From Clostridiales bacterium (GTDB taxonomy: Bacteria > Bacillota > Clostridia > Christensenellales > Aristaeellaceae), in NCBI GenBank assembly GCA_004556155.1, contig SFIM01000006.1, positions 23,760 to 55,759 on the forward strand: a stretch of DNA of 32,000 nt. Reading direction: 5' to 3'. The notes under the pieces are model-generated. The model made no database searches. It was not told the origin of the DNA and saw only the letters and a program-made list of their open reading frames with translations. A program made the position numbers and the translations under genes. Every line of letters begins with the position of its first letter. Position 1 is the first letter of the stretch. Positions 16,352-32,000 of the stretch are shown piece by piece.

Positions 16352-18629
16352 TAAGGGGCTGCGCGCGGCCCTGAGCGCGCTGATTGCCTGGCTGCTGGCG
16401 CTGGGTCTGGGCCTGCCGCTGCTCAAGGGCTTTGGCCTGGAGGGGCAGATGCTGCGCTTTGCCGTCTGCACGGCGGGCCTTTCGGGGGTGTTTTCCCTGC
16501 TGCGCACGCGCAAATACCTGTTTTCGCTGTCTCTTTTGCTGGCTGCCGCGGCGGCCGGCGTGCATTATTTGCTGGGCGGCGGCTGGATACAAAGCGCTCT
16601 GAACGCCGGGAATGCCATTGCGATGCATCTGCGCGGGGCGGGCGTTGCGCTGCCGCTGTATGGCGATACGATCGCCTTGCAGCTGACGCTGTACTGCGCC
16701 TTGCTGGGCACTGCGTTGGCTTCGCCCGATAACGGCCTGTATGCGCCGATTTTTATTGTAGGTTCGCTGCTTTGCAGCATGTGGCTGCTTGGGCTGCGCG
16801 GGGCCAGCGCGTATATGCTGCCCGCCCTGCCCGCGCTGCTGCTATTGTATGCCTGGACGCATGCGCGCGATCCCGAGGGCGATACGCCCCAGCGCCGTTC
16901 TATGCCTGCCATTGCGCTGGTTGCTGCGGCGGCGCTGTGCGCGCTGTCCATGGCGCTGGCTCCGGCGGACGGTACCAAGGTGCCCGCGCTGGCGCAGTTA
17001 GCGGATCGTGTGAGCGAAATACTGGACGATACGCTGCTGTTCCGTGAGCAGCGCTCGCGCTACAGCCTGGCTTTAGACGGCTGGATGCCCCAGGGCGAGG
17101 GCCGTCTGGGCGGCGAACCCTCGCCCAGCGATCGCATCATCATGCAGGTGGAAACCGATGAAACAGTCTACCTGCGCGGTGCGATTCTGGATACCTATAC
17201 GGGCGGAGCGTGGTACGATAGCATCAGCGCCCAGCGCTATGGCTGGTATTCGCGCCGATATCGGGAGCTGCGCGATCAGCTGACCCAGGCTGCTTATCCG
17301 TTGGTATCGGCGCAGAGCGAAAAAATGGCGCGTGTGATCATGCTTACCGACAGCGCCAGCACGCTCTTTGTACCCCAGCGCCTGCGCACGCTGACCGTCG
17401 AGGGCACGGCCAACGCTTATTTCAATCTGGGCACCGAGGTGTTTTTGAGCCGCAATTTGCAGCCCAGGGATACCTATACCGTTGAATATTTGCCCATGAA
17501 GGCCACCGACGCAGGCATGGCTGGGCTGGTTGCCAGCAATCAAAACGCCCAGGATGCGGCCTATGCCGGCGCGCAAGCGCAGTATATGGACGTTCCCGGC
17601 CATATGCAGCAGGATATTTATGATATCGTCCAGCGCGTGACTCAGGGGTGTAATACGCCGTGGGAAAAGGCCGTGGCGCTGCGCGATTATCTGCAAAATA
17701 CCTGCACCTATACCCTGCAGGTGCAAACGCCGCCCACGGATGTGGACTTTGTGGCCTGGTTCCTGTTGGCCGAGCGCCAGGGCTATTGCACCTATTTTGC
17801 CTCAGCCATGACCGTGATGTGCCGCATGGCGGGCCTGCCTGCGCGCTATATCGAAGGGTATTTGGTGCGCCCAGAGGCGGGCGGCACGACCGTCGTGCGC
17901 GGGCTTAACGCCCATGCCTGGACGGAGGTGTACTTGCGCGGAGTGGGCTGGGTGGCGTTTGACGCGACCCCCGGCGCGGGCGATCAGGATCAGAGCAATA
18001 CGCCTGACGGCAGCCTGCCGCCCGAGCAGCAGGAGCAGCCGACCCCCACGCCCGAGCCTGCGCCCACGCCTACCCCCTCACCTACGCCTGAAGCGCAGCC
18101 GACTCCCACGCCGACCCCCGCCCCCGAGGGCGCAACGCCCACGCCATCGCCTACGCCCGAAGCGCAGCCTACTCCCACGCCTACGCCTCCGCCGCAGGAT
18201 CCGCCCAAGGATCCTGGCCCGCGGCTGCCCTGGCTGGCGCTGCTGTTGCTGCTGGCTTTGATGCTGCTGCTTGCCTGGCGCGCACGCTTAACCGAACCCA
18301 TGTACCGCGCTGCCCGCGCGAAGGATGATGCGGCTGCGCTGCTGCTGCTGTGGCAGGCTGCGCTGCAATGCGCCGCGCAATTGGGCAAGCCCCGGCAGCA
18401 TGCCGAAACGCCGCTGGCCTATGCCGCGCGCCTGGGGGACAGCCTGGGCGTATCGCTGCAGAGCCTGGCTGAGGCGGTCAGCGCCGTGCAGTATGGCCGT
18501 CACATGCCGTCGTCTGCCGCCGTGCAGGAGGCTGGGCGCGTGTATACCGCGCTGAACGAACAACTGAATCTGTGGCAAAAGGCTGTGCTGTGCCTGCGCC
18601 GCATGCTGCATGTGACGCGCCGTCGCTGA
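16335..18629 (+). CDS. Polytopic membrane transglutaminase-like protein (TgpA-like)
   Basis: N-terminal multi-TM block, then a transglutaminase core with Cys (QGYCTYFASAM), His (NAHAWTEVY) and Asp (VAFDATP). This is followed by a Pro/Thr-rich linker, a TM helix (LPWLALLLLLALMLLLAW) and a helical C-terminal domain. ATG 16335 follows GGAGGTG and overlaps the DUF58 gene by 17 nt. Confidence 0.88.
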   Translation: MSRLRDKGLRAALSALIAWLLALGLGLPLLKGFGLEGQMLRFAVCTAGLSGVFSLLRTRKYLFSLSLLLAAAAAGVHYLLGGGWIQSALNAGNAIAMHLRGAGVALPLYGDTIALQLTLYCALLGTALASPDNGLYAPIFIVGSLLCSMWLLGLRGASAYMLPALPALLLLYAWTHARDPEGDTPQRRSMPAIALVAAAALCALSMALAPADGTKVPALAQLADRVSEILDDTLLFREQRSRYSLALDGWMPQGEGRLGGEPSPSDRIIMQVETDETVYLRGAILDTYTGGAWYDSISAQRYGWYSRRYRELRDQLTQAAYPLVSAQSEKMARVIMLTDSASTLFVPQRLRTLTVEGTANAYFNLGTEVFLSRNLQPRDTYTVEYLPMKATDAGMAGLVASNQNAQDAAYAGAQAQYMDVPGHMQQDIYDIVQRVTQGCNTPWEKAVALRDYLQNTCTYTLQVQTPPTDVDFVAWFLLAERQGYCTYFASAMTVMCRMAGLPARYIEGYLVRPEAGGTTVVRGLNAHAWTEVYLRGVGWVAFDATPGAGDQDQSNTPDGSLPPEQQEQPTPTPEPAPTPTPSPTPEAQPTPTPTPAPEGATPTPSPTPEAQPTPTPTPPPQDPPKDPGPRLPWLALLLLLALMLLLAWRARLTEPMYRAARAKDDAAALLLLWQAALQCAAQLGKPRQHAETPLAYAARLGDSLGVSLQSLAEAVSAVQYGRHMPSSAAVQEAGRVYTALNEQLNLWQKAVLCLRRMLHVTRRR
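18078..18188 (+). repeat. Two-copy 69-nt-period direct repeat encoding SPTPEAQPTPTPTP in the transglutaminase linker
   Basis: The 42-nt units at 18078-18119 (tcacctacgcctgaagcgcagccgactcccacgccgaccccc) and 18147-18188 (tcgcctacgcccgaagcgcagcctactcccacgcctacgcct) differ only at a few, mostly synonymous, positions. Confidence 0.8.
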
Positions 18630-19585: not shown

Positions 19586-20205
19586 CGGGGCTGCTGTTAT
19601 TTGGCGCGGAGGGCCGCATGGGGCGCGAGGTGGCGGCGCTGGCGGCACAATACGGCTTTACGCTGGGGGAAAAGGCGGAGGCGGCGATTGATTTTTCGCA
19701 TCCGGATGCGTTGGATGCGGTGCTTGACGCCGTGCTGGCGCGCGGCATTCCGCTGGTGAGCGGCACGACGGGCTATTCGCTTGCGCAGCAGCAGCAAATC
19801 CACGCGGCGGCGCAGCGCGTGCCCATCCTGCGCTCGGCCAATTTCAGCCTGGGCGCGGCGGTGATGGCGCGGCTGCTGGCGCAGGCGGCAAGCAGCCTGC
19901 CGGGCTGGGACGGCGCGCTGATTGAGCGGCATCACGCGGGCAAAGTGGATGCGCCCAGCGGGACGGCGATTGCGCTGGCACAGGCCATGGCGCTGCCGCG
20001 GGAGGGCATCCTGTCCGTGCGCGGCGGCACGGTGCGCGGGCTGCATGAGGCAGGATTCTACGGCCCCGAGGAGCATTTGACCATCGTACACTGCGCCGAA
20101 AGCCGCGCGGTGTTCGCCCATGGCGCACTGCGCGCCGCCCGGTGGAGCATCGGCCGCACGGCAGGGCTGTACGGCATGGAGGATCTGCTGGAAACGGTGA
20201 TATAA
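19582..20205 (+). CDS. dapB: 4-hydroxy-tetrahydrodipicolinate reductase (short form)
   Basis: N-terminal GAEGRMG dinucleotide motif, catalytic ERHHAGKVDAPSGTA and C-terminal GLYGMEDLL. An ATGA overlap links it to the dapA stop. I trimmed the track ORF (19270) to ATG 19582. Confidence 0.85.
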   Translation: MTGLLLFGAEGRMGREVAALAAQYGFTLGEKAEAAIDFSHPDALDAVLDAVLARGIPLVSGTTGYSLAQQQQIHAAAQRVPILRSANFSLGAAVMARLLAQAASSLPGWDGALIERHHAGKVDAPSGTAIALAQAMALPREGILSVRGGTVRGLHEAGFYGPEEHLTIVHCAESRAVFAHGALRAARWSIGRTAGLYGMEDLLETVI

Positions 20206-20207
20206 AA

Positions 20208-20262
20208 AAGCCCCGTCTGTGACGGGGCTTCAGCCTGTCGAAAAAGGGTGTTCGACAGGCTG
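20208..20262. terminator. Tandem hairpins between convergent dapB and the DMT transporter gene
   Basis: Hairpin 1 is aagccccgtc (20208-20217) / gacggggctt (20221-20230), preceded by aaaaaa, which gives a T-run on the minus strand. Hairpin 2 is cagcctgtcgaa (20231-20242) / ttcgacaggctg (20251-20262). Confidence 0.65.
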
Positions 20263-20278
20263 CCGCTGAAGGTCAGCC

Positions 20279-21187
20279 TTACGGATCCAGCAGGCCGATA
20301 ATCGCAATGCCCGCCACCGTAATGGCGATGGCCGCGTAGTGCTTCCAGCTCAGCTTTTCCTTGAGGAACAGGCGGCTCCACAGCACCGACACCGCGCAGT
20401 AGGAAGCGATGATGGGCGCGCTCATGGCCACGTGCGCCTTGTCCGCCAGGGCATAGATGTAGAAGAACTGGCCGATGGTCTCGCACACAGCGCCCAGATA
20501 CTTGGGGCCTTCGCTGCGCACGGTCAGCTTTTCGCGCTTGACAAACAGCACGTACCCCCCCGCAAGCAGGCCGGCGATCAGGAAGGTCAGCTCGTAGGCC
20601 ACGTTGGCAGAGCCCTCGTCGAGGGTTTCCAGCACCAGGCTGTCGGCAAAGGTGCCTGCCGCGTCCAGCACGCAGTAGAGGATGGGCAGCAGCAGCGCCA
20701 GGAAGGACTTGGCGTATTTGCGGTTGCCCGCCTCCTGACGGGCGGCGCGCAGCTCGTCGTCCTCGGTGGCTTCCACCACGCCCAGCAGGATTACGCCGCC
20801 GGCCACCAGCGTGATGGCGATCAGCTGCAGCGCGCCCATATCGCCAAGACCCGCCGTGATGAGGGTCAGTATGGCCACCAGCGCGCCGGAGGAATTGCAG
20901 ATGGGCGAGGAAATGGAAAGCTCGATGTAGCGCAGGCCGATATAGCCGATGGCCATGGATACGATGTAGAGCAGCGATACGGGAAGGTAGGTCAGGATGA
21001 TGCTCAGGTTGATCTCTACGCCGTTTACGAAGATTTCGTAGCAGGCGTGCAGACCCATCACAACGCCCACGGCCATGACCATCTTCAGGTAGGCGGTTTT
21101 ATCGCCGCTCTCACGGCAGCCAATTTTGGAAAACAAATCCGAGCCGCTCCAGCACAGCAGGGCAGCCAGGGAATACCAAAACCACAT
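20279..21187 (-). CDS. DMT-superfamily (EamA-like) transporter
   Basis: 302 aa with about ten helices. The N-terminus (WYSLAALLCWSGSDLFSKIG) is typical of DMT transporters. RBS AAAGGAGAG. Confidence 0.78.
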   Translation of the reverse strand: MWFWYSLAALLCWSGSDLFSKIGCRESGDKTAYLKMVMAVGVVMGLHACYEIFVNGVEINLSIILTYLPVSLLYIVSMAIGYIGLRYIELSISSPICNSSGALVAILTLITAGLGDMGALQLIAITLVAGGVILLGVVEATEDDELRAARQEAGNRKYAKSFLALLLPILYCVLDAAGTFADSLVLETLDEGSANVAYELTFLIAGLLAGGYVLFVKREKLTVRSEGPKYLGAVCETIGQFFYIYALADKAHVAMSAPIIASYCAVSVLWSRLFLKEKLSWKHYAAIAITVAGIAIIGLLDP

Positions 21188-21225
21188 GGTTGTATTTCTC
21201 TCCTTTTTTTCTGATGAAGATCCGT

Positions 21226-22095
21226 TTACTGCGCCCGCGCGCGGCTGAGGGTGATCAGGTGATACTGCGCCCGCGCGCCCAGCCGCAGCGGCAGCCAGGT
21301 GGTGCCCACGCCGTTGGAAACCAGCACGGTGACGCCGTGCTCCTCAATTTCGCCCGAGCGGTAATGGTTGCCGTAGCGCAGCCCGCGCCGGCTGGCGGTA
21401 TAGGGCGCAAAGCCCAGCAGCGTCACCTGACCGCCGTGCGTATGCCCGCACAGAGCCAGATCAAAAAACGGATCCCTTTGTACATTATAAGCGTCCTCCA
21501 ATGCGTCGGGCGCATGGGGGGCGTAAATCACATAATCCGCGCCGCGCACCTGGGCGGCCACGTCCTGATAGTCGGGCTCACCCCAATAGCAATCGTCCGT
21601 GGCGCACAGGGCGATGGTATCCTCCCCGCTGCGCAGCGTCAGCGCGCTGTTAAGCAGCGGGGTGACGCTTTTTGCCTGCATGGCGGCGCACAGCGCGTCT
21701 ATATCGCCGTCCGCACGGTCATGATTGCCGATGACTGCGCACACGGCCAGGCGCGCGTGCAACGGCGGCACGATGTGCCAGAATTCCAGGCTGTGGGCTG
21801 CGTCCTCGCCGTAATCCCCGCCCAGCAGGATGATATCGGCTTCCAGGGCGTTGAGACGCGCCGCCAGGTCGTTTACGCGCGCCGCATCCAGCAGCGCGCC
21901 GTAATGGATATCCGAGGCGTAGGCCAGCTTCAACCCGCTCAGCGATCTTGGGACGTGCGCGGAGCTGATCTCGTGCCGCTCCAGCCGCAGCTGGCGCGCC
22001 GTGTAGATTGGATACAGCCAGCGCCGGGGACGCAGCGAGGCCATCAGGATGCCCAGCCGCGAGGGCGTATGGGGTCGCTTTGCGGGCGTTTTCAT
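21226..22095 (-). CDS. Calcineurin-like metallophosphoesterase
   Basis: Motifs SDIHYG, GGDYG, GNHD and GHTHGGQ appear in the canonical order. I trimmed to ATG 22095, which is preceded by GGAAAGGAG. Confidence 0.88.
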   Translation of the reverse strand: MKTPAKRPHTPSRLGILMASLRPRRWLYPIYTARQLRLERHEISSAHVPRSLSGLKLAYASDIHYGALLDAARVNDLAARLNALEADIILLGGDYGEDAAHSLEFWHIVPPLHARLAVCAVIGNHDRADGDIDALCAAMQAKSVTPLLNSALTLRSGEDTIALCATDDCYWGEPDYQDVAAQVRGADYVIYAPHAPDALEDAYNVQRDPFFDLALCGHTHGGQVTLLGFAPYTASRRGLRYGNHYRSGEIEEHGVTVLVSNGVGTTWLPLRLGARAQYHLITLSRARAQ

Positions 22096-22161: not shown

Positions 22162-22262
22162 GATGGCGAAAGCGGCAATTATCAGACTGCGCCCTCCCCA
22201 CGCAGTACAGCGCCCGCAGCCGTGTCAGCGACAGGCAGGCTCCTGCCAGGGCATGCAAAAGC

Positions 22263-22290
22263 GCCTGCAATCTGATTAGCGATTGCAGGC
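22263..22290 (-). terminator. Terminator hairpin ending the FAD-oxidoreductase / ABC / kinase operon
   Basis: 10-bp stem gcctgcaatc (22263-22272) / gattgcaggc (22281-22290). On the minus strand it is followed by GCTTTTGC. It lies 16 nt past the stop at 22306. Confidence 0.6.
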
Positions 22291-22305
22291 GTTTTGATTT
22301 GCAAT

Positions 22306-24060
22306 TTAAACGTCCATGATTTCGCACCCATACAGGCCGATATCGCCGCCGCCCCAGGATGATTCCAGGCACAGGGTAAGGCGGGATGCGCCGTCCGGCA
22401 GGGGGATGCGCAGCAGCGCCTGATGGTTTTTCAGCTTCAGGGAAACGGGGCCGTCCGGCATTTCGCAGATCAGCGTGGCCTCGCGCAGCAGCGGGGCGGG
22501 CATTTGCAGCGGCGGATCGTCCGCAAACACATGCGCGCGCATGGCAAAGTCCTGATACTTTTTACGCGGGGAAATGCTCTCCCGCGAAAAATCAGCATCC
22601 AGCGCCAGCCGCAGCGCCTGACGGCGCGCAGGGGCGGGCAGGGTGATGGTCAGCCGCGTGCCAGCGGGCAGCAGGATGCGGTTTTCAACGCCCGCGTGCG
22701 GGCGCTCCCAGCCGTTTTGCAGGAGGGCCAGCTGCTCGGACGGCAGATCGATCTGCGTCGGCGCGGGCTTGCGCACCAGGCCGGGCAGGTAGCAGCCGTC
22801 CTCCATCAGGCGGCGCTGAAGCTCCGCCATGTGGCACAGATAAACCCCGCGCGGATCGCACGTTTTTTCCACGGCCAGCGCGGCGGCGGCGCCGGCTGCC
22901 TGCCCCATCAGCGAGCAGGTAGCCATCACGCGCGTGGAGCTCATGGCCAGGTGGGAAGCGCTGATGTTGCGCCCGGCGAACATCAGGTTATCGATGTTGC
23001 GCGAGTAGAGGCAGCGATAGGGAATGGGATAAGGCGCGTTGACGGGCAGATGATGCGAGGAGTAGCCCGGCGCGTAAAAGCCGGCGGGCAGGTGATTGTC
23101 CATTGTCCAGCCGCCGTAGGCCACTACATCGGGGAAGGGACGGCCGGTGGACAGATCCTGCTGGGTGAGCATATAGTCGCCCTCGTAGCGGCGGCTTTCG
23201 CGTTTGCCGGGCAGGAAGCCCACCCACTCCAGCTCCCAATTATCCGCGCCGTGATCGCCACGGTTTTTGATATGATCCCACACGCCAAAGGCGATTTTGA
23301 GCAGCTCCATGTTCAGCGTTTGCGTGTCGGCAATGGTATCCTGCTCGCCGCCCAGCTCAATCCACCAGAAGTTCACGCCCGTGCCGATGAAATCATGGTT
23401 CTTGTCCATCATGCTGGCGTCATCGGGATAGACGTTCGCCCATTCGGGCGCGGTGAAGGGGCAGGGATGATCGGTCTGCCGGGCTTCGATCAGGCAGGAA
23501 TTGCCCATCGTTTTGCGGTCAGCCTGCGCGGGAGCCTCGGATTCGCCCAGATCGTTTTGCCCTTCTCGGCCCACGCGGTAGGCTGCGCCGCACAGCGGGG
23601 CCAGGATGCTGTCGCCCGAGCAATCCAGAAAGATCTGCGCTTCCACGGTGTGGAAGGCATAGGTATTCAGCTGCCAGCCGGTAACGGACGTGATGCGGTT
23701 GCCCGCAGTTTGACAATCCAGGCAGGAGCAGTTGAGCAGCAGGGTGATGTTCTTTTCCGCCATCACGGCCTGCAATAGCACGCTATCCCAAAGGGAATAG
23801 TTCATGGTGGGATTGCGGTAGATGTTTTCCAGCTCCAGCTCCTGCAGGATGCCCGTTTCGCGGTTTTCCCTGCCGGCCGCGCCGCGGATCCACATGCGGA
23901 TCTCGCTGCTGGCGTTGCCGCCAAGCACAGGGCGATCGTGCATCAGCACCACCCTGGCACCATGGCGCGCGGCGGAGATGGCGGCAATCATGCCGGCCAT
24001 GCCGCCCCCGATGACGCAGATATCGGCCTGATGGCAGATGGCGTTATTCATGCTTAGCAT
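22306..24060 (-). CDS. FAD-dependent oxidoreductase, long paralogue (584 aa) with an extra C-terminal domain
   Basis: N-terminal ADICVIGGGMAGMIAAISAARHGARVVLMHDRPVLGGN (dinucleotide-binding fold), central LPGKRESRRYEGDYMLTQQDL and distal STRVMATCSLMGQAAGAAAA. About 130 further residues follow with no motif I recognise. Its start overlaps the kinase stop by 17 nt. Confidence 0.85.
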   Translation of the reverse strand: MLSMNNAICHQADICVIGGGMAGMIAAISAARHGARVVLMHDRPVLGGNASSEIRMWIRGAAGRENRETGILQELELENIYRNPTMNYSLWDSVLLQAVMAEKNITLLLNCSCLDCQTAGNRITSVTGWQLNTYAFHTVEAQIFLDCSGDSILAPLCGAAYRVGREGQNDLGESEAPAQADRKTMGNSCLIEARQTDHPCPFTAPEWANVYPDDASMMDKNHDFIGTGVNFWWIELGGEQDTIADTQTLNMELLKIAFGVWDHIKNRGDHGADNWELEWVGFLPGKRESRRYEGDYMLTQQDLSTGRPFPDVVAYGGWTMDNHLPAGFYAPGYSSHHLPVNAPYPIPYRCLYSRNIDNLMFAGRNISASHLAMSSTRVMATCSLMGQAAGAAAALAVEKTCDPRGVYLCHMAELQRRLMEDGCYLPGLVRKPAPTQIDLPSEQLALLQNGWERPHAGVENRILLPAGTRLTITLPAPARRQALRLALDADFSRESISPRKKYQDFAMRAHVFADDPPLQMPAPLLREATLICEMPDGPVSLKLKNHQALLRIPLPDGASRLTLCLESSWGGGDIGLYGCEIMDV

Positions 24061-25729
24061 GTGCTTGTTCCTTTACGGCGGCGGAGAGATCGCGCAGCCG
24101 TTTCATCACATCGTTGGCGCCGCGGCCAAAGTAATCGTGCAGAGCGATGTATTCCTGATACAGCGCGTCGTAGGCGGCGGCCTGGCTGGCGTCGGGCTGA
24201 TAGCGGATATCGCTCAGGCAGCTCATGCGCGCGGCAGCCTCGTCCAATTGATCGTAGCCGCCCTTTTGCGTGCCCGCCGCACAGGCGGACAAAATGGCCA
24301 TGCCCACGGCCGGGGTAGGCAGGGGCTTGGAAATGTAGAGCGGGCGCTGAATGATATTGCTTAGCAGCTGCATGAACAGGGGGTTTTTGTAGGATATGCC
24401 GCCGCTGACATGCAGGGCGCGGATGGGCACGCCCGCGCGCTCGTGCGCATCGATGATGCAGCGCAGGCCAAAGCCCAGCCCCTCCATCAGCGCGCGGTAT
24501 ATCTCCTCGGGGCGGGTTTGCAGCGTCATGCCCAGCAGCATGCCGCTCAGGCGCATATCAGCCAGGCAGGAACGGTTGCCGTTCCACCAGTCCAGACAGA
24601 TCAGCCCGCTTTCGCCCGGGCGCAGGCGCGCGGCGCGGCGGGAAAGCTCCTCATGTGCGGAGATGTGCGCATCCTGCGCGGCGCGAAGCACTTCCTCGGG
24701 CGCGCAGCGGCTGACAAACCAGCCCAGCAGGTCGCCGAAGGCTGCCTGACCGGAGGCATAGCCGTACAGACCGGGCAGGGTGTTGTCCAGCGTGATGCTG
24801 GTGGTGCCCTCTACGGGCAAAAATTGGGAGTAGCACAGGATCATGGCGGAGGACGTGCCGGCTGCTAGCGCGGCGGGGCCGGGGCCTGTGATGCCCAGCG
24901 CGGGCAGGGAAGCCATGGCGTCGGGATGCGGGGCGGTGACGACGATGCCCGCGGGAAGACCCAGCCAGGCAGCCTGACGCGCGGTCAGATAGCCGCTGAC
25001 CGCGCCGATATCGATGAGCTTGCCGCGCACCTTGGCGCCGATCATGCCGGCCAGGCGCGGATCGGCATAACGCAGCAGCGGCGGATAGCCCACGCCCTCG
25101 CGGTACTGCGCCTTGTGCGTTGCCAGCGAGCGCGCCAGGTTCTCATTGCCGGTAAGCCGCTGGGTCAGCCAGTCGCCGACCTCCAGAAAGCGGTCGGCCG
25201 CGTCAAACACATCGGGCGCCTCGCGCAGCACCTGCCACACCTTGGGAAAAAACGCCTCGGGGGACAGCCTGCCGCCCACGCAGGGAAGCAGCTCCGGGTC
25301 ATGCTCGCGCATCAGCTCGGTCAGCCGCGCGGCCTCCCACTGCGCGGCATGGTGCTTCCACAGCTTGATATAGGCGTGCGGATTGCGCTCGAACCGGGGA
25401 TCAAAGCACAGCGGCGTGCCGGCCTTATCAACAGGCAGGGGCGTGCTACAGGTAAAATCCATGCCCATGCCGATGATATCCGCGCGGTTGATATCGGACT
25501 GATCCAGCACGCCGTGCACGGTGGCATGCAGGCCGTCCAGAAAATCCTGCGGGTGCTGCAGGGCATAATCGGGGGGCAGGGGCGTGCCGCAGGGCAGACG
25601 ATCGGACATTACGCCGTGGGCATAGGGACATTCGGATTCAGATAGCACCGCGCCGTCGGATACGCGGCACAGCACGGCGCGGGCGGACTGGGTGCCAAAA
25701 TCAACGCCGATGGTATAGGTTTGCTTCAT
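24044..25729 (-). CDS. FGGY-family carbohydrate kinase, ribulokinase-like
   Basis: At 561 aa it has the length typical of AraB-type kinases. The N-terminus (YTIGVDFGTQSARAVL...LPPDYALQHPQDFL...IIGMGMDFTCSTPLPVDKAGTPLC) closely parallels my recollection of Bacillus AraB. I left the gene symbol empty because no araA or araD partner is present. Confidence 0.85.
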   Translation of the reverse strand: MKQTYTIGVDFGTQSARAVLCRVSDGAVLSESECPYAHGVMSDRLPCGTPLPPDYALQHPQDFLDGLHATVHGVLDQSDINRADIIGMGMDFTCSTPLPVDKAGTPLCFDPRFERNPHAYIKLWKHHAAQWEAARLTELMREHDPELLPCVGGRLSPEAFFPKVWQVLREAPDVFDAADRFLEVGDWLTQRLTGNENLARSLATHKAQYREGVGYPPLLRYADPRLAGMIGAKVRGKLIDIGAVSGYLTARQAAWLGLPAGIVVTAPHPDAMASLPALGITGPGPAALAAGTSSAMILCYSQFLPVEGTTSITLDNTLPGLYGYASGQAAFGDLLGWFVSRCAPEEVLRAAQDAHISAHEELSRRAARLRPGESGLICLDWWNGNRSCLADMRLSGMLLGMTLQTRPEEIYRALMEGLGFGLRCIIDAHERAGVPIRALHVSGGISYKNPLFMQLLSNIIQRPLYISKPLPTPAVGMAILSACAAGTQKGGYDQLDEAAARMSCLSDIRYQPDASQAAAYDALYQEYIALHDYFGRGANDVMKRLRDLSAAVKEQAHAKHE

Positions 25730-25738
25730 AAAAAGTGC

Positions 25739-26572
25739 TTAGCCCTTTACGCCGGAGGTGGCGATACCTTCAACAAAGTATTTTTGCCCAACGATAAACA
25801 GGATGACGACCGGCACGATGGCGCTGGTGGCGGCGGCCATGGTGAGGTTATGCTCCTTGAATTCATCGAGCATGTACCACTGAATATTCTGCGATACGGT
25901 GTACAATTCCTTCTTGACCAGGAAAATCAGCGGAGCCATATATTCATTCCAGCTGCTGATGAAGGCCAGGATGATCAGCGACATCAGCGCGGCCTTGGTC
26001 AGCGGCAGCATGATGCGCAGGAAAATGCGCAGATGCCCTGCGCCGTCGATCTTGGCGGCTTCAATCAGATCGTTGGGCAATCCCATATAGAACTGCCGCA
26101 GCATGAAGATGGACGTGGCGCCAAAGAAGGCGGGCAGAATGATGGCCCACAGGTTGTTGTACAGGCCAATGGTCTTAAACAGCATAAAGCGGGGGATGAT
26201 GGTCAGCTGGCTGGGCACCATCATGGAGGACAGGAACAGCATGAATACGACCTGCTTGCCCTTAAAATTGATCTTGGCAAAGGAATAGGCCGCCAGGGAG
26301 GAGATGAACATCTGCCCGATGATGCTGAACAGCGCGATATACAGCGTGTTGGCAAAGGCGCGCAGCATGGAGGCTTCTTCGTTCATCCATACGGTGGCGT
26401 AGTTTTGCCACTGGACCCTGGCAGGCAGCCAGTGGAAGGGCCGGGCAAATACCTCCGGCGCGGTTTTGAGCGAGGAGAGCACCATCCATACCAGCGGAAC
26501 GACAAACAACACGGCGATGAGCGAAACAACGATGGTGCGCACGATGGCGGCCGCTCTTTCATTCTTTTTCAT
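25739..26572 (-). CDS. Carbohydrate ABC transporter permease (MalG-like)
   Basis: EAA loop LPNDLIEAAKIDGAGHLRIFLRIMLPL and six helices. I trimmed the track ORF (27025) to ATG 26572, which is preceded by AAAGGAGAA. Confidence 0.9.
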   Translation of the reverse strand: MKKNERAAAIVRTIVVSLIAVLFVVPLVWMVLSSLKTAPEVFARPFHWLPARVQWQNYATVWMNEEASMLRAFANTLYIALFSIIGQMFISSLAAYSFAKINFKGKQVVFMLFLSSMMVPSQLTIIPRFMLFKTIGLYNNLWAIILPAFFGATSIFMLRQFYMGLPNDLIEAAKIDGAGHLRIFLRIMLPLTKAALMSLIILAFISSWNEYMAPLIFLVKKELYTVSQNIQWYMLDEFKEHNLTMAAATSAIVPVVILFIVGQKYFVEGIATSGVKG

Positions 26573-26589
26573 GGGGCGTTCTCCTTTCT

Positions 26590-27519
26590 TTAATAATGAA
26601 CCCACTTCTTCTGTCCCCAGAAGTTGAGCAGGGTAATGACGAGAATGAGCACGAACAGCACCATGGACTGCGCTGCGGCATAGCCAAACTTGTAGCTGCC
26701 AAAGGCGTTGCCGTAGATTTCCACCACCATGGAGGTGTTGGCGTAGGAGGGGGAGCCCATGGTCATGATGTTGACGGAGGAGAAGATCTTGAATACTGCG
26801 ATCATACGCACGATGACCAGATAGAAGGTGGTGGGGGATACCATGGGCAGCGTGATGTAGAAGAACTTCTGCATGCCGGTGGCACGGTCGATGTCGGCGG
26901 CCTCGTACAGGCTGGCGGGCACGCTTTGCAGCGCGGACATGTAGATAACCAGCTCGTAGCCCACGGCCGTCCAGATGACCATCACGATGATGGGAATTTT
27001 GTTCAATTGCAGGCTTACAAACCATTGCGGCGGGTTCTTAATGCCCAGCGCCAGCAGGATGGAGTTGATCACGCCGTCGTCGCGGAACATGAACTTGAAT
27101 ACGGCGGCCAGCGCCACAGCGCTGGAGATGTAGGGGATGAAGAAGGCCATGCGCAGCAGCTTTCTGCAATAGACCTTGTTGTTGAGGATATAGGCCAGCA
27201 CCAGGGCCAGCAGGATGGAGGTGGGCACGGTGGCGATGGAATAGATGAACGTGTTGGCAAAGGCCTGGCCGAAGCGGCGATCCCTGGCCAGGTTGGCAAA
27301 GTTTTGCAGGCCGACCCACTTCAGCTTTTTCCAGCCGCCCAGAAAATTCCACTTGGTAAAGGACAGACCGATGGAGGCGAAGAAGGGGAAGGCCACGAAG
27401 ACCAGAAACACAATCAGCGCGGGCAGGATGAAGGCATAGCCGATGAGGGTTTCCTGCCGCTGCAAGGCGCTGGTGCGCTTTGTCAGCCGCTTGCGGGCTG
27501 CCAGATCAGGATTGGACAT
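26590..27519 (-). CDS. Carbohydrate ABC transporter permease (MalF-like)
   Basis: EAA loop SVPASLYEAADIDRATGMQKFFYITLPM. The N-terminus (LIGYAFILPALIVFLVFVAFPF) is typical of CUT1 permeases. Confidence 0.9.
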   Translation of the reverse strand: MSNPDLAARKRLTKRTSALQRQETLIGYAFILPALIVFLVFVAFPFFASIGLSFTKWNFLGGWKKLKWVGLQNFANLARDRRFGQAFANTFIYSIATVPTSILLALVLAYILNNKVYCRKLLRMAFFIPYISSAVALAAVFKFMFRDDGVINSILLALGIKNPPQWFVSLQLNKIPIIVMVIWTAVGYELVIYMSALQSVPASLYEAADIDRATGMQKFFYITLPMVSPTTFYLVIVRMIAVFKIFSSVNIMTMGSPSYANTSMVVEIYGNAFGSYKFGYAAAQSMVLFVLILVITLLNFWGQKKWVHY

Positions 27520-27540
27520 GGTGTTTTCCTCATTTCTATG

Positions 27541-27571
27541 GCCCTCCCGCCCCTTGGCGAGGCGGGAGGGC
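27541..27571 (-). promoter_or_regulatory. Intercistronic GC-rich hairpin between the binding-protein and permease genes
   Basis: Perfect 11-bp stem gccctcccgcc (27541-27551) / ggcgggagggc (27561-27571) with a 9-nt loop. No U-run follows on the minus strand. It sits in the 89-nt gap after the SBP stop. Confidence 0.6.
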
Positions 27572-27608
27572 GCTGTGTTGCTTCAATCCGCCCTGGGATT
27601 GAAATAAA

Positions 27609-28964
27609 TTAGTCAGCGTTCTTGATGGCTTCGTCGGCGATTTGCTTGGCCTGGGCCATGGCCTCCTCAGCGGTCATCAGACCCTGATGCGCATAGCGGG
27701 TATACTCGTTGATCGCCTTGTTGACGTCGGTGTAGGCGGTCAGGATGGTGTCGGTGTAGGGAGGATTGTCATAGTTGACAACCACGCGCTTGAAGGATTC
27801 CACATCCACCAGCTTTTCGGCGTTTTCCTCGCTGCCAAATACCAGATCGACCAGCGCGTTGGTGTCGGTGCCCTTCCAGGAGGACTGATGGCCGGCGCAG
27901 ATCAGATAGCGGGAGCCGTAGGTGGAATACCAGGCCAGCCAGTACCAGGCGGCCTCCTCATCGGCGCAGTTGGCGGCGATGCCGGCATGGGAGAAGTTGG
28001 ACACGCCCGCCATGTAGTTGGTCTGACCCTTTTCCTCCACAGGCCAGGGGGCGAAGCCGGTGATCCACTGGGTGGGGTACTTGCTGGTATCGCGGATGAA
28101 GCGCACCATGTTGGGGCTGATGGCGGAGGCGGCGGTGTGACCCATGAACACGTCCTGGGTCTGGATGTTATCGTTGCGGTACACCTCCAGCGGATACCAG
28201 ATCTTATCCTCTACCTCCGCCTTGATTTCGCGCTTGAGGGCGTTGACAATCAGCGGATCGGTGAAGTTGGACAGGCCGTCCTCGCCGAAATACTGATCGT
28301 GGCCGTACACCTGGTACCATACATAGGTGAAGTAGTTGACGCTGTGATAGTCGGAGCCGCCGTAGAGCACGGTGTTGCCCGCCTCGTCCTTCTTAGTCAT
28401 GGCGGCGCAGGCGGCCAGGTACTCGTCCCAGGTCCATTCGGTGGGCAGCTCGCCCAGGCCGGCCTCGTTCCAGTCGGTCATGTTGATGGAAACATAGTAG
28501 CTCAGGCCGCCGCAGGGGAAGGTGTAGTACGTGTCGTCATACTTGTACACATCGGTGCCCCAGTTGTCTACCAGGTTGATGTTGTACTTTTCAATGTAGT
28601 CGGTCAGCTCCATGTACAGGCTGTTTTCCCAGCGGCGATAGGCGTTGGCCAGGCCGAAGGAGGCCAGTACGTCGATTTCACCGGCCATCAGGGCGGCGTC
28701 AACGGCCAGGTTGCCGTCGGAGTTGTTGTTGTAGGAGGTCAGCTCAACCTTGACGTTGGGATAGGTCTGGTTGAACTCGGCGATCATGTCGTCCATGCCC
28801 TGGGAGCCCTTGAAGGGGATCCAGAAGCGCACGGTGCCGCTGACGGCGGCGGGATCCTTGGCCAGGATCCAGGAGGTGATGTCGGGCTGCTCATCGGCCA
28901 TGGCCATGGGGAGGGCGCACAGCAGCAGCACCAGCGCGGTCAGGAAAGCGAGTGCCTTTTTCAT
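27609..28964 (-). CDS. ABC transporter extracellular solute-binding protein (family 1, sugar type)
   Basis: Signal sequence MKKALAFLTALVLLLCALPMAMADEQ, about 451 aa, aromatic-rich (many W/Y) as is typical of CUT1 sugar-binding proteins. It is adjacent to MalF/MalG-like permeases. I trimmed to ATG 28964. Confidence 0.88.
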   Translation of the reverse strand: MKKALAFLTALVLLLCALPMAMADEQPDITSWILAKDPAAVSGTVRFWIPFKGSQGMDDMIAEFNQTYPNVKVELTSYNNNSDGNLAVDAALMAGEIDVLASFGLANAYRRWENSLYMELTDYIEKYNINLVDNWGTDVYKYDDTYYTFPCGGLSYYVSINMTDWNEAGLGELPTEWTWDEYLAACAAMTKKDEAGNTVLYGGSDYHSVNYFTYVWYQVYGHDQYFGEDGLSNFTDPLIVNALKREIKAEVEDKIWYPLEVYRNDNIQTQDVFMGHTAASAISPNMVRFIRDTSKYPTQWITGFAPWPVEEKGQTNYMAGVSNFSHAGIAANCADEEAAWYWLAWYSTYGSRYLICAGHQSSWKGTDTNALVDLVFGSEENAEKLVDVESFKRVVVNYDNPPYTDTILTAYTDVNKAINEYTRYAHQGLMTAEEAMAQAKQIADEAIKNAD

Positions 28965-29024
28965 GTGGGGATACCTCTTTCTTTTATATTTTGGAAACGC
29001 TGCGGCGTTTGCCATTCTCTGTTG

Positions 29025-30407
29025 TCAGCCCAGGAAGGCGCCCTGTCTGCGCAGGGCGTCGCGCAGGGCCTGCACGTCGATCTGCCGGGGGGAGATGTGC
29101 GCTGCGGCGGCCTGCGCGGCTGCCGTGCCCGCCGCCTGCCCCAGCGCCATGCAGGGGGGCATCACGCGGATGGCCCCGGCAGCCTCGGACGTGGCCGACA
29201 CGCTGCGCCCTGCCACCAGCAGGTTTTCCACCTTCAGGGGCACAAGGCAGCGGTAGGGCACGCCGTAGTACTCGCCGTTTTCCACCGTGACGTACTCGTT
29301 GCTCATCGGGCCGAAGCGCCCGTGCACGTCGATGGAGTTGGCGGCCAGCAGGATGCTGTCGTCAAAGAGCACGCCGTGCAGCACATCGTCGGTGGTCAGG
29401 ATATATTCGCCCTTGATGTGCCGTGTTTCGCGCACGCCAATGTGCGCGGGCGTGCTGAGCAGCACGGCGTTTTCGCAGCCGGGCACATATTTGCGCAGGA
29501 AGCGGAAAATCTGCTGCACCTGCCGGCGGCCCTCCATCTCGGCGCGGGACAGCTGATCGGGATCGGTGGCGTCCACGCCCATGATGCGCGAGGTGTTGAT
29601 ATTCCACTCATCCTCGCGCACACCGCGGAAGATGCCGATGGACACGCGCTGCAAATCCCAGTCGCCGTTGGCTCGGGCCTGAGCCACCCGCCAGTGGAAG
29701 GAGCGGTAGTTTACGCCGTCCTTGCGGTAAAAGTTATCGCGGTTCGCATCGATATCGGCCTCCACCTTGGCGGAATCCACATGGCCGATACGGAAGAACA
29801 TCGTCACCGGCTGGATGCGGCCGCTGGCCTCGTCGCCCATCTCGCAGGGCACGCCGCTGCGATAGGCAACGTCCGCGTCGCCCGTGCAGTCAATCACGAT
29901 ATCGCTCTTTACCAGCTTCAGCCCGCCCTTGGTCATGATGACCAGGCCGGTCAGGCGGTTTTCATCCATCACAGGGGACACGAACGTGCTGTGGAACAGC
30001 ACCTGCACCCCGGCCTCGCAGCACATTTCATCCAGCACCACCTTGAGCGTTTCTGCGTCAAAGGGGGTGACGTGGTTGTGCCCCACCACGATGTAGGAGG
30101 TAAAGGCGGAGCCTGCGGGCACCTGGCCGGGATCGATGGCCGCCCCGCGGGCAACCAGGCGATCGACGATTTCCTTGAACAGGCCGCGGATGATCATATT
30201 GTCGCCATCCTTGTCATAGCAGGTCATAAAAGGATTGACCTGCCCCAGCGTCGCCATACCGCCCAGGCAGTTGCCGCTTTCAATCAGCAGGGTTTTGGCG
30301 CCGTTGCGCGCGGCCGCAATGGCGGCGCATACGCCCGCCGGGCCGCCGCCCACCACCGTCACCTGCGCGGCGTAGCTTTCATTCAGCGCACAGGAAAAAT
30401 TGTACAT
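29025..30407 (-). CDS. FAD-dependent oxidoreductase, paralogue A (460 aa)
   Basis: QVTVVGGGPAGVCAAIAAARNGAKTLLIESGNCLGGM, FLRKYVPGCENAVLLSTPAHIGVRETRHIKGEY and IRVMPPCMALGQAAGTAAA are present. ATG 30407 is preceded by GGGGAGGA. Confidence 0.88.
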   Translation of the reverse strand: MYNFSCALNESYAAQVTVVGGGPAGVCAAIAAARNGAKTLLIESGNCLGGMATLGQVNPFMTCYDKDGDNMIIRGLFKEIVDRLVARGAAIDPGQVPAGSAFTSYIVVGHNHVTPFDAETLKVVLDEMCCEAGVQVLFHSTFVSPVMDENRLTGLVIMTKGGLKLVKSDIVIDCTGDADVAYRSGVPCEMGDEASGRIQPVTMFFRIGHVDSAKVEADIDANRDNFYRKDGVNYRSFHWRVAQARANGDWDLQRVSIGIFRGVREDEWNINTSRIMGVDATDPDQLSRAEMEGRRQVQQIFRFLRKYVPGCENAVLLSTPAHIGVRETRHIKGEYILTTDDVLHGVLFDDSILLAANSIDVHGRFGPMSNEYVTVENGEYYGVPYRCLVPLKVENLLVAGRSVSATSEAAGAIRVMPPCMALGQAAGTAAAQAAAAHISPRQIDVQALRDALRRQGAFLG

Positions 30408-30426
30408 GCTCGGTTCCTCCCCTTGT

Positions 30427-31740
30427 TTATTCCTGGTCAAACAGCGTGCAGCCCGCCTTTTGCAGCGCATCCTGCACCAGATGGTAATCCAGCTCACGCG
30501 GCAGCTCCCCGCGCTTGGCGCACAGCGCCGCCGCCGTGCCCGCCGCCTGACCCGTAGCCAGACAGATAGCCATCACGCGGTAGGATGCGTGCGCGCGGTG
30601 CGTGCCGCTGATGCAGCGCCCGGCGGTCAGCATGCCGTCCACGCCGCGCGGCACCAGCGCGCCGTAGGGGATATCATAGGGAATGGCGGGCTGGGAGTGC
30701 CCCTCGGCCTGGCCGCCGCCCGCGGGATTGTGGATATCAATCAGGAACCACGCCTTATGCACCGCCACGTCGGGGCAGCGCGTGCCCGTTTCCACATCGA
30801 TATCCTCGATGCGGCGCAGACCCTCGATGCGGCGCGTCTCGCGCACGCCCAGCGTGGCGGCGGAGGACTTGACGCGGCAGTTTTCATAGCCGGGCACATA
30901 CTTGCGCAGGAAGGCGATGATCTTGTCAATCTGCGCGCGCAGGGTCAATTCGGCCGTTACTTCGTCCTTGGGGGTCAGGATATCCAGGCCGTTTGCCTGG
31001 GTGGCGTTCACATTGCGCTCGCCGGGATAGAAGGTTTTGTGCAGGCGCACGATGGATACGCTCTGGGGCAGCTCGCCGCGCTCGCAGCACTCGCGGCACA
31101 GCTGGCTGTATTTTTTGCCGTCGGGCAGGGTGACGGGATCACTGCCGCCAAAGCAGGACAGCGCGCGGCTTTCATCCAGATGATCGACCAGGAACTCGAT
31201 GGTTACAGGCTGGCAGCGGCCATCCTGCTCGCGGCCGATGTGATACTGCGCGCCCGCGCGCATCGCGGCAAAGCCGTCGCCCGTCGCGTCGATAACTACG
31301 CTGGCGTGCAGCTCCTGCAGACCCAGCGCCGTGCCTGCCAGCACGCCCGTCACGCGGGAGCCGTCCTTGAGCACCTCCACCACCGGGGTGTGCAGGAAGA
31401 TTTCCACGCCGCTTTCGTGCGTCAGGCGCAGCAGGCGCTCCTTGGCTTCTTCTACATCCACGTGGATTTCGCGCCCGTTGCGGGTGGAGAGCAGCGGCAC
31501 ATCCTCATGGCCCTCGGCCAGCAGGGCGACGATTTCATCATAAAAGCTGCCTGGGGCGACATTGCCCAGGATGGGCTGCACCTGCCCGGCGGTGAGCATG
31601 CCGCCCAGCAGGCCGCCGCGCTCCAGCAGGGCGGTGTGCGCGCCCATACGCGCCGCGGCAACCGCCGCGCCAACGCCCGCCGGGCCGCCGCCCACCACAA
31701 GCACATCATACTGCAAAGAGGGAACAGTAGCGGAAATCAT
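30427..31740 (-). CDS. FAD-dependent oxidoreductase, paralogue B (437 aa)
   Basis: YDVLVVGGGPAGVGAAVAAARMGAHTALLERGGLLGGM, FLRKYVPGYENCRVKSSAATLGVRETRRIEG and YRVMAICLATGQAAGTAAA are present. RBS AAAGGAG. Confidence 0.88.
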   Translation of the reverse strand: MISATVPSLQYDVLVVGGGPAGVGAAVAAARMGAHTALLERGGLLGGMLTAGQVQPILGNVAPGSFYDEIVALLAEGHEDVPLLSTRNGREIHVDVEEAKERLLRLTHESGVEIFLHTPVVEVLKDGSRVTGVLAGTALGLQELHASVVIDATGDGFAAMRAGAQYHIGREQDGRCQPVTIEFLVDHLDESRALSCFGGSDPVTLPDGKKYSQLCRECCERGELPQSVSIVRLHKTFYPGERNVNATQANGLDILTPKDEVTAELTLRAQIDKIIAFLRKYVPGYENCRVKSSAATLGVRETRRIEGLRRIEDIDVETGTRCPDVAVHKAWFLIDIHNPAGGGQAEGHSQPAIPYDIPYGALVPRGVDGMLTAGRCISGTHRAHASYRVMAICLATGQAAGTAAALCAKRGELPRELDYHLVQDALQKAGCTLFDQE

Positions 31741-31765
31741 AGCTGCTTTCGGCTCCTTTTTGATT

Positions 31766-31781
31766 TTTATACCGGTCTAAA
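31766..31781. promoter_or_regulatory. Imperfect palindrome (candidate LacI-family operator) overlapping a possible -10 box
   Basis: tttataCCGGtctaaa has arms matching at 5 of 6 positions around a CCGG centre. On the minus strand it contains TATAAA, about 25 nt upstream of the paralogue-B RBS. This is a weak call. Confidence 0.25.
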
Positions 31782-31813
31782 AACTAAAAATAAGAAAAAA
31801 TCGGGCTTTTATG

Positions 31814-32000
31814 TTAAACGCTTTCGCGCTCAACCATATAGGAAGGCACCACGATGGAGCGCATGGGCTGCTTGGGATCGGCCAGGCGGGAGAGCATCAT
31901 CTCCGCCGCCTGCGCGCCCATGGCGTCCTGACGGATGTTAACGGCCGTCAGCGGGGGCGTGGCGTAGCCGCACAGGGAGTTATCCTCGTAGGAGATGATG
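31814..32000 (-). CDS. LacI-family transcriptional regulator, C-terminal fragment (N-terminus beyond the window)
   Basis: My reverse-complement translation reads IISYEDNSLCGYATPPLTAVNIRQDAMGAQAAEMMLSRLADPKQPMRSIVVPSYMVERESV-stop. The motif [FY]xxPxLT[TA]V followed by a helix is the usual LacI/GalR effector-domain end. Confidence 0.8.
   Translation of the reverse strand, partial: IISYEDNSLCGYATPPLTAVNIRQDAMGAQAAEMMLSRLADPKQPMRSIVVPSYMVERESV

Follow-up and report, generated by a model that had tools for sequence, protein, structure and literature searches.

A 32,000-nucleotide stretch of the Clostridiales bacterium assembly GCA_004556155.1 (contig SFIM01000006.1, positions 23,760 to 55,759 of the forward strand), referred to below as the window, contains an operon in which three flavoproteins of the PF12831 family are combined with a sugar importer of the ATP-binding cassette (ABC) type and a kinase derived from the ribulokinase AraB. 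Seven co-directional minus-strand genes lie 3′ of a gene for a LacI-family repressor (region 22306-32000), in the order LacI-B-A-SBP-MalF-MalG-kinase-C, where B, A and C are the flavoproteins FADox-B, FADox-A and FADox-C, SBP is the substrate-binding protein of the importer and MalF and MalG are its permeases. The union of repressor, importer and kinase in one operon is of a known kind; the enzymatic core is uncharacterised and no description of it was found. The reading favoured here, which has close to an even chance of being right, is that of a catabolic regulon under LacI repression that serves the use of an imported carbohydrate of pentose type. In it the flavoproteins would take over from the usual glycosidase or isomerase and precede the step of a dedicated kinase derived from AraB; possible substrates are an oligosaccharide or glycoside, or else a decorated pentose or pentitol.

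An AraB-derived kinase that accompanies PF12831 genes

The first-pass annotation of the window, made from the letters alone, had described the kinase as AraB- or pentulokinase-like. Descent from AraB is supported by an end-to-end alignment with the Bacillus halodurans ribulokinase AraK (3QDK, E 1.6e-156) and by a score of 522.6 bits on the NCBIfam ribulokinase model NF003154 (cutoff 428); the description has to be narrowed to a distinct subfamily in which a ligand of ribulose, Glu329, is replaced by Ala. The protein also fails the stricter equivalog model TIGR01234, on which it scores 504.1 against a cutoff of 583.25. In 3QDK, L-ribulose is bound by Ala96 (main chain), Lys208, Asp274 and Glu329 (PMC4880283). 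The window kinase retains Lys208, Asp274 and Trp126, has Cys at position 96, and carries the Ala329 replacement in the context GYASGQ.

The distribution of this replacement was followed in 79 AraB-like kinases from a metagenome scan that could be scored at position 329. Glu was found in 74 of them, Asp in one and Ala in four. None of the 74 Glu329 kinases had a PF12831 neighbour, whereas all four Ala329 kinases did, three of the four (L090-L092) being 98-99% identical copies of the window gene. Seven further PF12831-linked kinases, in loci L008, L014, L015 and L171-L174, also have Ala329, so that in total 11 of 11 Ala329 kinases are linked to PF12831 genes; the second FGGY gene of L014, located away from the ABC and FADox-C genes, keeps Glu. 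The kinase is a distinct AraB-derived subfamily that occurs only beside PF12831 genes, and this association is the strongest single evidence that kinase and flavoproteins share one pathway. It further suggests that the sugar phosphorylated by the kinase is a relative of ribulose rather than ribulose itself.

The operon resembles araBAD-type loci (AraB L-ribulokinase, EC 2.7.1.16; 3QDK) in that a repressor and a sugar importer accompany and feed a pentose kinase of AraB descent. It differs from them in the Ala329 kinase, found only beside PF12831 genes, and in its gene content, as neither araA nor araD is present in the 32-kb window, in the loci L001-L006 of the same genome and sister contigs or in the flanks covered for related loci.

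Conservation of the gene set

Related loci were collected from an alignment scan with FADox-A over one genome per species, from contigs encoding homologues and from the kinase metagenome scan. Comparison of their gene neighbourhoods, which the first-pass annotation had proposed as a check, came out in favour of that annotation: in other Clostridia (L171, L093, L014, L015, L172, L173, L174, L008 and L010) the genes for flavoproteins, transporter and kinase are conserved together, with 42-79% identity across the gene set. The order AP_endonuc_2-LacI-B-A-SBP-F-G-kinase-C is reproduced unchanged in L171, at 51-75% identity (F and G stand for the two permeases; the AP_endonuc_2 gene lies beyond the edge of the window and is described below), and L172 has the same order minus C. 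In L093 the order is AP_endonuc_2-B-A-SBP-F-G-kinase-C, with no lacI, at 53-79% identity. Rearranged versions are LacI-A-SBP-F-G-C-kinase, plus B and two more PF12831 genes (L014); LacI-B-A-SBP-F-G with the kinase nearby (L015); LacI-A-SBP-F-G-C-DUF624-kinase with B divergent (L174); LacI-B-A-GDSL-C-unknown-kinase-GDSL in a Lachnospiraceae genome (L173); LacI-A-SBP-F-G-DUF624-kinase-PfkB-ADH-GDSL::unknown-PF12831 (L008); and AP_endonuc_2-A-kinase (L010). The arrangement is real, exceeds what chance would give and is conserved across relatives. The species that carries the window locus is abundant in public metagenomes, the FADox-C sequence being indexed in 222 blocks of a public metagenome collection, and identical protein sequences are found on many metagenome contigs of an uncultured Clostridiales bacterium.

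The importer is of the CUT1 type, consisting of an SBP_bac_1 protein and two BPD_transp_1 permeases of MalF/MalG type. Orthologues of the binding protein occupy the same position in L008, L014, L015, L171, L172 and L174 at 58-77% identity. Its nearest match in the PDB is Lmo0181 (E 2e-6), and an assignment of the substrate from this match was given up because the match is too weak. No ABC ATPase of the MsmK/MalK type is encoded in the operon; Firmicutes commonly share one ABC ATPase encoded elsewhere.

Variation was also observed among close relatives of the window. The strains represented by L091 and L092 have kinases 99% identical to that of the window; FADox-C is only 73% identical to the window copy in L092 (5109-6878), and the L091 copy (3241-4740) is reduced to 499 aa, with other genes than in the window between it and EamA. 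Such differences suggest that alleles were replaced, or the DNA rearranged, at the operon's 3′ end. In a 3.3-Mb contig of the same species (L005, 8331-10017) the kinase gene is split into two open reading frames of 359 and 215 aa, by a frameshift or an assembly error.

A LacI regulon that extends beyond the window

The window ends inside lacI, and the genes beyond it were read from L001 and sister contigs. The 61 C-terminal residues of LacI encoded in the window (31817-31999) match Peripla_BP_3 (E 8e-14), with RbsR-type regulators as the closest NCBIfam matches. The full protein, seen in L001-L006, has 343 aa with a helix-turn-helix domain (PF00356 and PF13377). A palindrome typical of an operator, TTAGACCGGTATAA, is located in the spacer between lacI and FADox-B, and in the same genome related palindromes, whose consensus is about TTGGACCGGTCCAA, are found ahead of both lacI and the AP_endonuc_2 gene; the three L001 sites, at 175, 1178 and 2281, stand before AP_endonuc_2, lacI and FADox-B. 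Similar palindromes occur in the promoter regions of L008, L014, L015, L093 and L171-L174, and altogether in nine of ten related loci.

The degenerate pattern TTDGANYGKTMYAA was found 22 times in the 208 kb of ten window-like loci, compared with three times in 1.35 Mb of other PF12831 loci and three times in 0.95 Mb of canonical araB loci, an enrichment of about 40-fold over both control sets that is partly circular, the pattern having been derived from a subset of the counted loci. New sites also appeared in loci and at positions outside the derivation set. The window site taken alone is at chance level (one match versus 1.06 expected), so that its weight comes from its position and its conservation across loci. 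The distribution of the sites indicates one orthologous LacI regulon, with a predicted operator, that includes the AP_endonuc_2 gene. As an observation apart, the palindrome is a candidate regulon signature for finding further member genes genome-wide.

The first-pass annotation had emphasised that the operon contained no hydrolase or isomerase. Inside the window this holds: no CAZy glycoside hydrolase lies between lacI and the terminator, and no glycoside hydrolase, araA, araD or redox-partner or electron-transfer gene was found within the 32 kb. Across the window and the conserved loci, no isomerase of known type, glycoside hydrolase or electron-transfer gene recurs consistently. The statement does not extend beyond the edge, where the AP_endonuc_2 gene carries the same operator and, in L093 and L010, lies directly 5′ of the flavoprotein genes in the same orientation. 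This gene (L001:221-1042) encodes a xylose-isomerase-like TIM barrel of 273 aa and is located upstream of lacI, on the operon strand, beyond position 32000. It is kept at 61-69% identity in L010, L093, L171 and L172, standing 15 nt upstream of FADox-B in L093, with no lacI between, and directly upstream of FADox-A in L010; it is not in loci L008, L014, L015, L173 and L174. The AP_endonuc_2 gene belongs to the regulon of the operon.

The best profile match of the AP_endonuc_2 protein is CbiR (E 9e-20; 71 bits, below the 105-bit cutoff), a cobamide-remodelling phosphodiesterase of the AP endonuclease 2 superfamily (PMC7733943). No cobamide genes are found near the operon, and the gene itself lies outside the window. 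Weaker matches are to ketose 3-epimerases; the one to fructoselysine 3-epimerase (E 7e-10) falls far short of its cutoff. In the PDB the closest entries, MJ1311 and TTHB071, are uncharacterised proteins. The protein may be an isomerase, a lyase or a phosphodiesterase. A GH13 gene located two genes upstream of lacI on the same strand, also beyond the window, was rejected as part of the system because it is not kept in L010, L093, L171 and L172.

Three flavoproteins of the PF12831 family

Assignment of the three flavoproteins to PF12831, the FAD_oxidored family, which the first-pass annotation had anticipated, was confirmed with hidden Markov models: each matches the whole model (positions 1-416) with a score far above the gathering score of 27 bits (Table 1). 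The family name defines no reaction. A three-way alignment bore out the motifs that the first reading had pointed to as shared, and the elements common to A, B and C are GGGxAG...LGG, DxxGD, G(V/K)RE(T/S)R, D-x-H, (V/I)PY, AGRxxS and RVMxxCxxxGQAAGxAAA. GGGxAG, the N-terminal dinucleotide-binding motif of the GxGxxG type, LGG and the C-terminal flavin motif RVMxxCxxxGQAAG are invariant; overall identity to FADox-A is 37% for FADox-B and 26% for FADox-C. Asp173/Asp177, Arg326-Glu327-x-Arg329 and Asp360/His362 of FADox-A are among the invariant residues. As had also been noticed, no signal peptide is found in the three window proteins, whose Rossmann motif begins at residue 12-20. They are described here as cytoplasmic proteins with predicted FAD binding and redox activity.

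Within each of the three orthologue groups (A, B and C), conservation is far higher than in PF12831 as a whole. That of FADox-A shows 63-87% identity with about 190 invariant columns in the alignment, and that of FADox-C 60-77% identity across the full length; orthologues of FADox-B are present at 59-70% identity in L014, L015, L093 and L171-L174. FADox-A is the most conserved of the three and their core member. Its family comprises 2143 clusters at 50% identity (E <= 1e-30), from gut, rumen and environmental Clostridia, Bacteroidales, Kiritimatiellae, Verrucomicrobia and others.

Structure prediction and structural searches yielded no characterised member. The AlphaFold2 (AF2) model of FADox-A, with a predicted local distance difference test (pLDDT) score of 83, retrieved in Foldseek generic GR2-type flavoproteins only, with template-modelling (TM) scores <= 0.5 and <= 18% identity; the nearest folds are geranylgeranyl reductase, halogenases, PHBH-type monooxygenases and flavocytochrome c3. 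The FADox-C model is of moderate quality (pLDDT 65), and its top folds are FrdA/SdhA at a TM of about 0.3. FADox-C ends in an all-beta domain of ~150 aa (strands at 462-583, pLDDT 80-90 in the AF2 model) that has no Pfam match. PDB sequence and profile searches with A and C matched only a Rossmann segment of ~40 residues, and sequence, profile and fold searches of the PDB revealed no solved structure for this clade. No NCBIfam model reaches its cutoff for the flavoproteins, their homologues are named in the sources only "FAD-dependent oxidoreductase", matches to PF01266 are marginal (25-34 bits) and largely limited to the N-terminal Rossmann part, and Pfam detects no GMC or GFO domain. A literature search returned no functional study of the PF12831 clade, of a flavin-dependent glycosidase or of such an operon. 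The earlier remark that no characterised pathway has this architecture thus agrees with the family names in Pfam and NCBIfam, with the PDB searches and with the literature. A former annotation of PF12831-like proteins as xanthan lyases found no support in the literature search and was dropped.

Periplasmic orthologues and hints on the substrate

In Bacteroidales, Kiritimatiellae and other diderms, FADox-A orthologues at 53-70% identity carry twin-arginine signals (for example MNRREFL..., MDRRKFL... and NRRNFLKG), and several of them adjoin SusC/SusD pairs. Twin-arginine signals imply that the diderm proteins are exported folded, with the cofactor bound, to the periplasm. FADox-A would thus act in the periplasm of diderms and in the cytoplasm of Firmicutes, behind an ABC importer; each is the compartment in which imported oligosaccharides are normally dismantled. 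Because the periplasm has no ATP, the flavoprotein step should come before phosphorylation. No cytochrome, electron-transfer flavoprotein, ferredoxin or quinone-linked partner is conserved near the flavoprotein genes.

Other neighbours of the flavoprotein genes differ between loci. SGNH/GDSL or SASA esterases recur in related loci, and GDSL esterases occur together with a protein of ~300 aa in L008, L173 and L174. Neighbours of the phosphoesterase or sulfatase type are Metallophos (in the window), MetallophosN/C, Exo_endo_phos (EEP), GH2::GDPD and a formylglycine sulfatase, and occasional glycoside hydrolase neighbours are GH172 (L007), GH123 (L027) and a GH27-like protein (L020-L022). Taken together, these genes hint weakly at a glycan or glycoside that is decorated with esters, and possibly also with sulfate or phosphodiester groups, and in which a backbone unit ends as a pentulose. 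No substrate is named here because no accessory gene is conserved across independent lineages.

Further details were observed for some of these neighbours. The ~300-aa protein family has no Pfam or NCBIfam match; in Firmicutes as well as in Bacteroidia it repeatedly adjoins FADox and GDSL esterase genes (L015:16322-17200, L017:2969-3889, L020:7513-8439, L173:11848-12759 and L174:298-1212, the last on the minus strand); in L008 it forms the C-terminal part of 19622-21217, fused behind a GDSL domain, and it is not in the window locus. Near a FADox-A orthologue with a twin-arginine signal in L170, two fusion genes (5676-8300 and 14381-17113) encode a SASA (sialate-O-acetylesterase-like) domain joined to a FADox-C-like PF12831 protein (41% identity) and a GH2::GDPD (glycerophosphodiester phosphodiesterase) protein. 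Around the FADox-A orthologues of the Bacteroidales loci L020-L022 there are two to five copies per locus of proteins of ~410-480 aa with a weak metallo-beta-lactamase signature, together with a sulfatase, a GH27-like protein, an SSF transporter, a BACON-domain protein and SusC/D.

Proposed function and competing explanations

In the favoured reading, the CUT1 system would import the substrate and the three PF12831 flavoproteins, with FADox-A as the core enzyme and B and C as accessory ones, would carry out the sugar-transforming or bond-breaking steps that usually fall to glycoside hydrolases and isomerases. They would act ahead of phosphorylation and deliver a ketopentose-like sugar, and the kinase, with its pocket remodelled by Glu329Ala, would phosphorylate this product for pentose-phosphate metabolism. 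The first-pass annotation had imagined oxidation or cleavage to a ketose that is then phosphorylated, and such a route is a plausible hypothesis. An O2-dependent oxidase is unlikely in view of the hosts, gut and rumen organisms presumed to be anaerobes, the lack of an electron-transfer partner and the exported FADox-A orthologues. Presumed anaerobic hosts, the lack of an encoded redox partner and the periplasmic orthologues make it most likely that the flavins need no external electron acceptor. The reaction might consist of a transient oxidation and re-reduction in one active site, or of steps that balance each other; we infer, as the most economical solution, a self-contained flavin reaction that is redox-neutral or internally balanced.

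Several points weigh against this reading. Redox-neutral catalysis is argued from absences only, the order of steps follows from localisation and gene content, and araA and araD could be located elsewhere in the genome. The Bacteroidales orthologue loci have no kinase within 10 kb, so that the link between FADox-A, a ketopentose and the kinase has its evidence in Firmicutes only. The accessory genes also vary by lineage, with AP_endonuc_2 in some and an SGNH/SASA esterase and the ~300-aa protein in others, and the substrate may not be identical in all lineages. To these is added the circularity in the operator enrichment mentioned above.

A bolder, rather unlikely proposal is that the A, B and C clades are new flavin-dependent carbohydrate-active enzymes that cleave or rearrange glycosides without hydrolase chemistry and deliver a ketopentose-type product. 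By analogy, a possible mechanism is transient oxidation by the flavin followed by elimination, as with NAD+ in GH4 and GH109, or a conversion of an aldoside to a ketose. Glycoside cleavage by flavoproteins would explain why they stand in for glycoside hydrolases both in Firmicutes operons and in Bacteroidota SusC/D loci, and it would also explain export through the twin-arginine pathway with the cofactor and the co-evolved AraB-derived kinase. Apart from this proposal, the operon may be likened to the oxidative 3-keto cleavage of glycosides known from CarA/CarBC, DgpA/DgpBC, the alternative glycan breakdown of Bacteroidota and levoglucosan LgdA/B, where an oxidoreductase with a tightly held cofactor is paired with an enzyme of the AP_endonuc_2 fold, is exported by the twin-arginine pathway in diderms and can replace a glycoside hydrolase. 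However, the oxidoreductases of those systems are GMC or Gfo/Idh/MocA proteins, whereas those of the operon belong to PF12831; the AP_endonuc_2 protein is nearer to CbiR than to the known lyases and is missing from many related loci; and no DUF1080-type hydratase was seen.

Among the competing explanations, a polyol-phosphate route of the GlpK/GlpD or Brucella EryA/EryB/EryC type is quite improbable. The kinase would then phosphorylate an imported pentitol such as ribitol or arabinitol, possibly from teichoic-acid-like phosphodiester polymers, the flavoproteins would oxidise the product to a ketopentose phosphate, and the AP_endonuc_2 protein would be an EryC-like isomerase or a phosphodiesterase. 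The glycerol (GlpK/GlpD) and erythritol (EryA/B/C/D) systems likewise unite in a single regulon an FGGY kinase and an FAD enzyme with an ABC importer and a repressor, to which the ery case adds an AP_endonuc_2 isomerase, and AraB is known to accept pentitols; the best match of the AP_endonuc_2 protein to the phosphodiesterase CbiR and the recurrence of phosphoesterase genes nearby (Metallophos, MetallophosN/C, Exo_endo_phos and GH2::GDPD) agree with this. However, EryB and GlpD are DAO-family enzymes (PF01266) that work on the product of the kinase and deliver their electrons to a respiratory chain, whereas the operon has three paralogues of a different family, PF12831, with PF01266 matches that are weak and lie in the N-terminal Rossmann part, presumed anaerobic hosts and no quinone or other acceptor system encoded. 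Exported FADox-A orthologues in an ATP-free compartment cannot depend on a prior kinase step, and the phosphoesterase neighbours are not kept across independent lineages.

A similarly low probability is given to a reductive route, in which the flavoproteins would be reductases of the geranylgeranyl- or fumarate-reductase type, dependent on NAD(P)H or ferredoxin, that act on a keto or unsaturated sugar derivative whose product is trapped by the kinase. The nearest folds (geranylgeranyl reductase, flavocytochrome c3, FrdA and PHBH-type enzymes) point in this direction, and flavin reductases are numerous in anaerobic gut bacteria. These fold matches are nevertheless weak (TM 0.3-0.5, identity <= 19%), no electron-donor genes are linked, periplasmic orthologues would lack NAD(P)H, and three conserved paralogues with a sugar importer point to carbohydrate processing and not to a single reduction.

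Catabolism of Amadori compounds or glycated amines is very unlikely. The substrate would be of the ribulosamine or fructosamine type, imported by a CUT1 system as in the frl system of Bacillus subtilis, with amadoriase- or deglycase-like flavoproteins, an FrlC-like 3-epimerase in the AP_endonuc_2 protein and a kinase that acts on the ketosamine or the released ketose. CUT1 importers for fructosamines are known to exist, the AP_endonuc_2 protein has its match, far below cutoff, to fructoselysine 3-epimerase, and Glu329Ala could make room for a substituent at C1. Known amadoriases, however, are O2-requiring enzymes of the DAO family; the PfkB kinase and the FrlB deglycase on which known anaerobic routes depend are both absent; and in other phyla the neighbouring SusC/D, sulfatase, GH27-like, GH123 and esterase genes speak for glycans. 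Scarcely probable, finally, is an ordinary locus for L-arabinose or arabino-oligosaccharides with a normal L-ribulokinase, with araA, araD and glycosidases elsewhere and with unrelated or ancillary flavoproteins: the kinase does pass the NF003154 cutoff, match AraK (3QDK) and keep Lys208, Asp274 and Trp126, but it fails the TIGR01234 cutoff, Ala329 perfectly tracks PF12831 neighbours and Glu329 their absence (0/74), the kinase and FADox-C genes overlap by 17 nt, and gene set and operator are conserved across families.

Layout of the operon and its surroundings

The gene list and the operon-like packing given by the first-pass annotation are borne out by Pfam and by the coordinates (Table 1), which reproduce exactly its range of junctions, from a 17-nt overlap to an 89-nt gap. 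The gaps measure 73 nt between lacI and FADox-B, 19 nt between FADox-B and FADox-A, 60 nt between FADox-A and the binding protein gene, 89 nt between the latter and the MalF-like gene, 17 nt between the two permease genes and 9 nt between the MalG-like and kinase genes; the kinase and FADox-C genes overlap by 17 nt. Packed this closely, the seven genes make up a single unit that closes in a terminator-like hairpin, the probable end of the operon. FADox-A starts with the ATG at 30407, the mechanical open reading frame reaching further, to a GTG at 30497.

Table 1. Features of the operon region in the window
Feature	Position	Strand	Description
lacI, 3′ end	31814-32000	-	runs off the window; stop codon 31814-31816
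Operator-like palindrome TTAGACCGGTATAA	31767-31780	-	in the 73-nt lacI/FADox-B spacer; central CG; sequence given as read on the minus strand
FADox-B	30427-31740	-	437 aa; PF12831, full-length match, E 5e-104, 349 bits
FADox-A	29025-30407	-	460 aa; PF12831, full-length match, E 5e-125, 418 bits
Binding protein	27609-28964	-	451 aa; SBP_bac_1, E 2e-20; N-terminal signal peptide; CUT1 type
MalF/UgpA-like ABC permease	26590-27519	-	309 aa; BPD_transp_1; UgpA and MalF profiles below cutoffs
MalG/UgpE-like ABC permease	25739-26572	-	277 aa; BPD_transp_1; GlcU, UgpE and MalG profiles below cutoffs
FGGY kinase, AraB-derived	24044-25729	-	561 aa; FGGY_N and FGGY_C present
FADox-C	22306-24060	-	584 aa; PF12831 at residues 13-418, E 2e-92, 311 bits; ~165 further C-terminal residues
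Terminator-like hairpin	22262-22291	-	11-bp stem with 7 GC pairs, T-rich tail; 15 nt past the FADox-C stop

On the same strand, 3′ of the hairpin, lie genes for a YaeI-like Metallophos phosphoesterase (21226-22095) and an EamA transporter (20279-21187). Both were rejected as members of the operon, since the terminator-like hairpin and a gap of ~210 nt intervene and they are not kept beside FADox-C in other genomes. The rest of the 32-kb window has a housekeeping character (NAD kinase, AsnA, MiaA, MatE, a MoxR/DUF58/transglutaminase set, DapA and DapB). In this part, genes on the plus strand at 14259-18629 for a MoxR-type AAA ATPase, a DUF58 protein and a transglutaminase-like membrane protein adjoin dapA/dapB and have no relation to the operon. 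Antisense mechanical open reading frames of up to 971 aa, such as 27642-30557 on the plus strand, are not genes and are typical for DNA of 60-65% G+C.

Significance

The operon is a strong lead to new carbohydrate enzymology rather than a solved pathway. The module of three flavoproteins, kinase, importer and repressor, with its predicted operator and the diagnostic kinase residue Ala329, offers an experimental handle and addresses a recurrent blind spot in carbohydrate-utilisation loci. If the flavoproteins break bonds or isomerise sugars, they would constitute a new mechanistic class of carbohydrate-active enzymes, and a better annotation could be given to many genes that are named "FAD-dependent oxidoreductase" in polysaccharide-utilisation loci. 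Should they turn out to be ordinary dehydrogenases or reductases, the operon would still represent a new catabolic route, with its substrate, in an abundant uncultured gut lineage.

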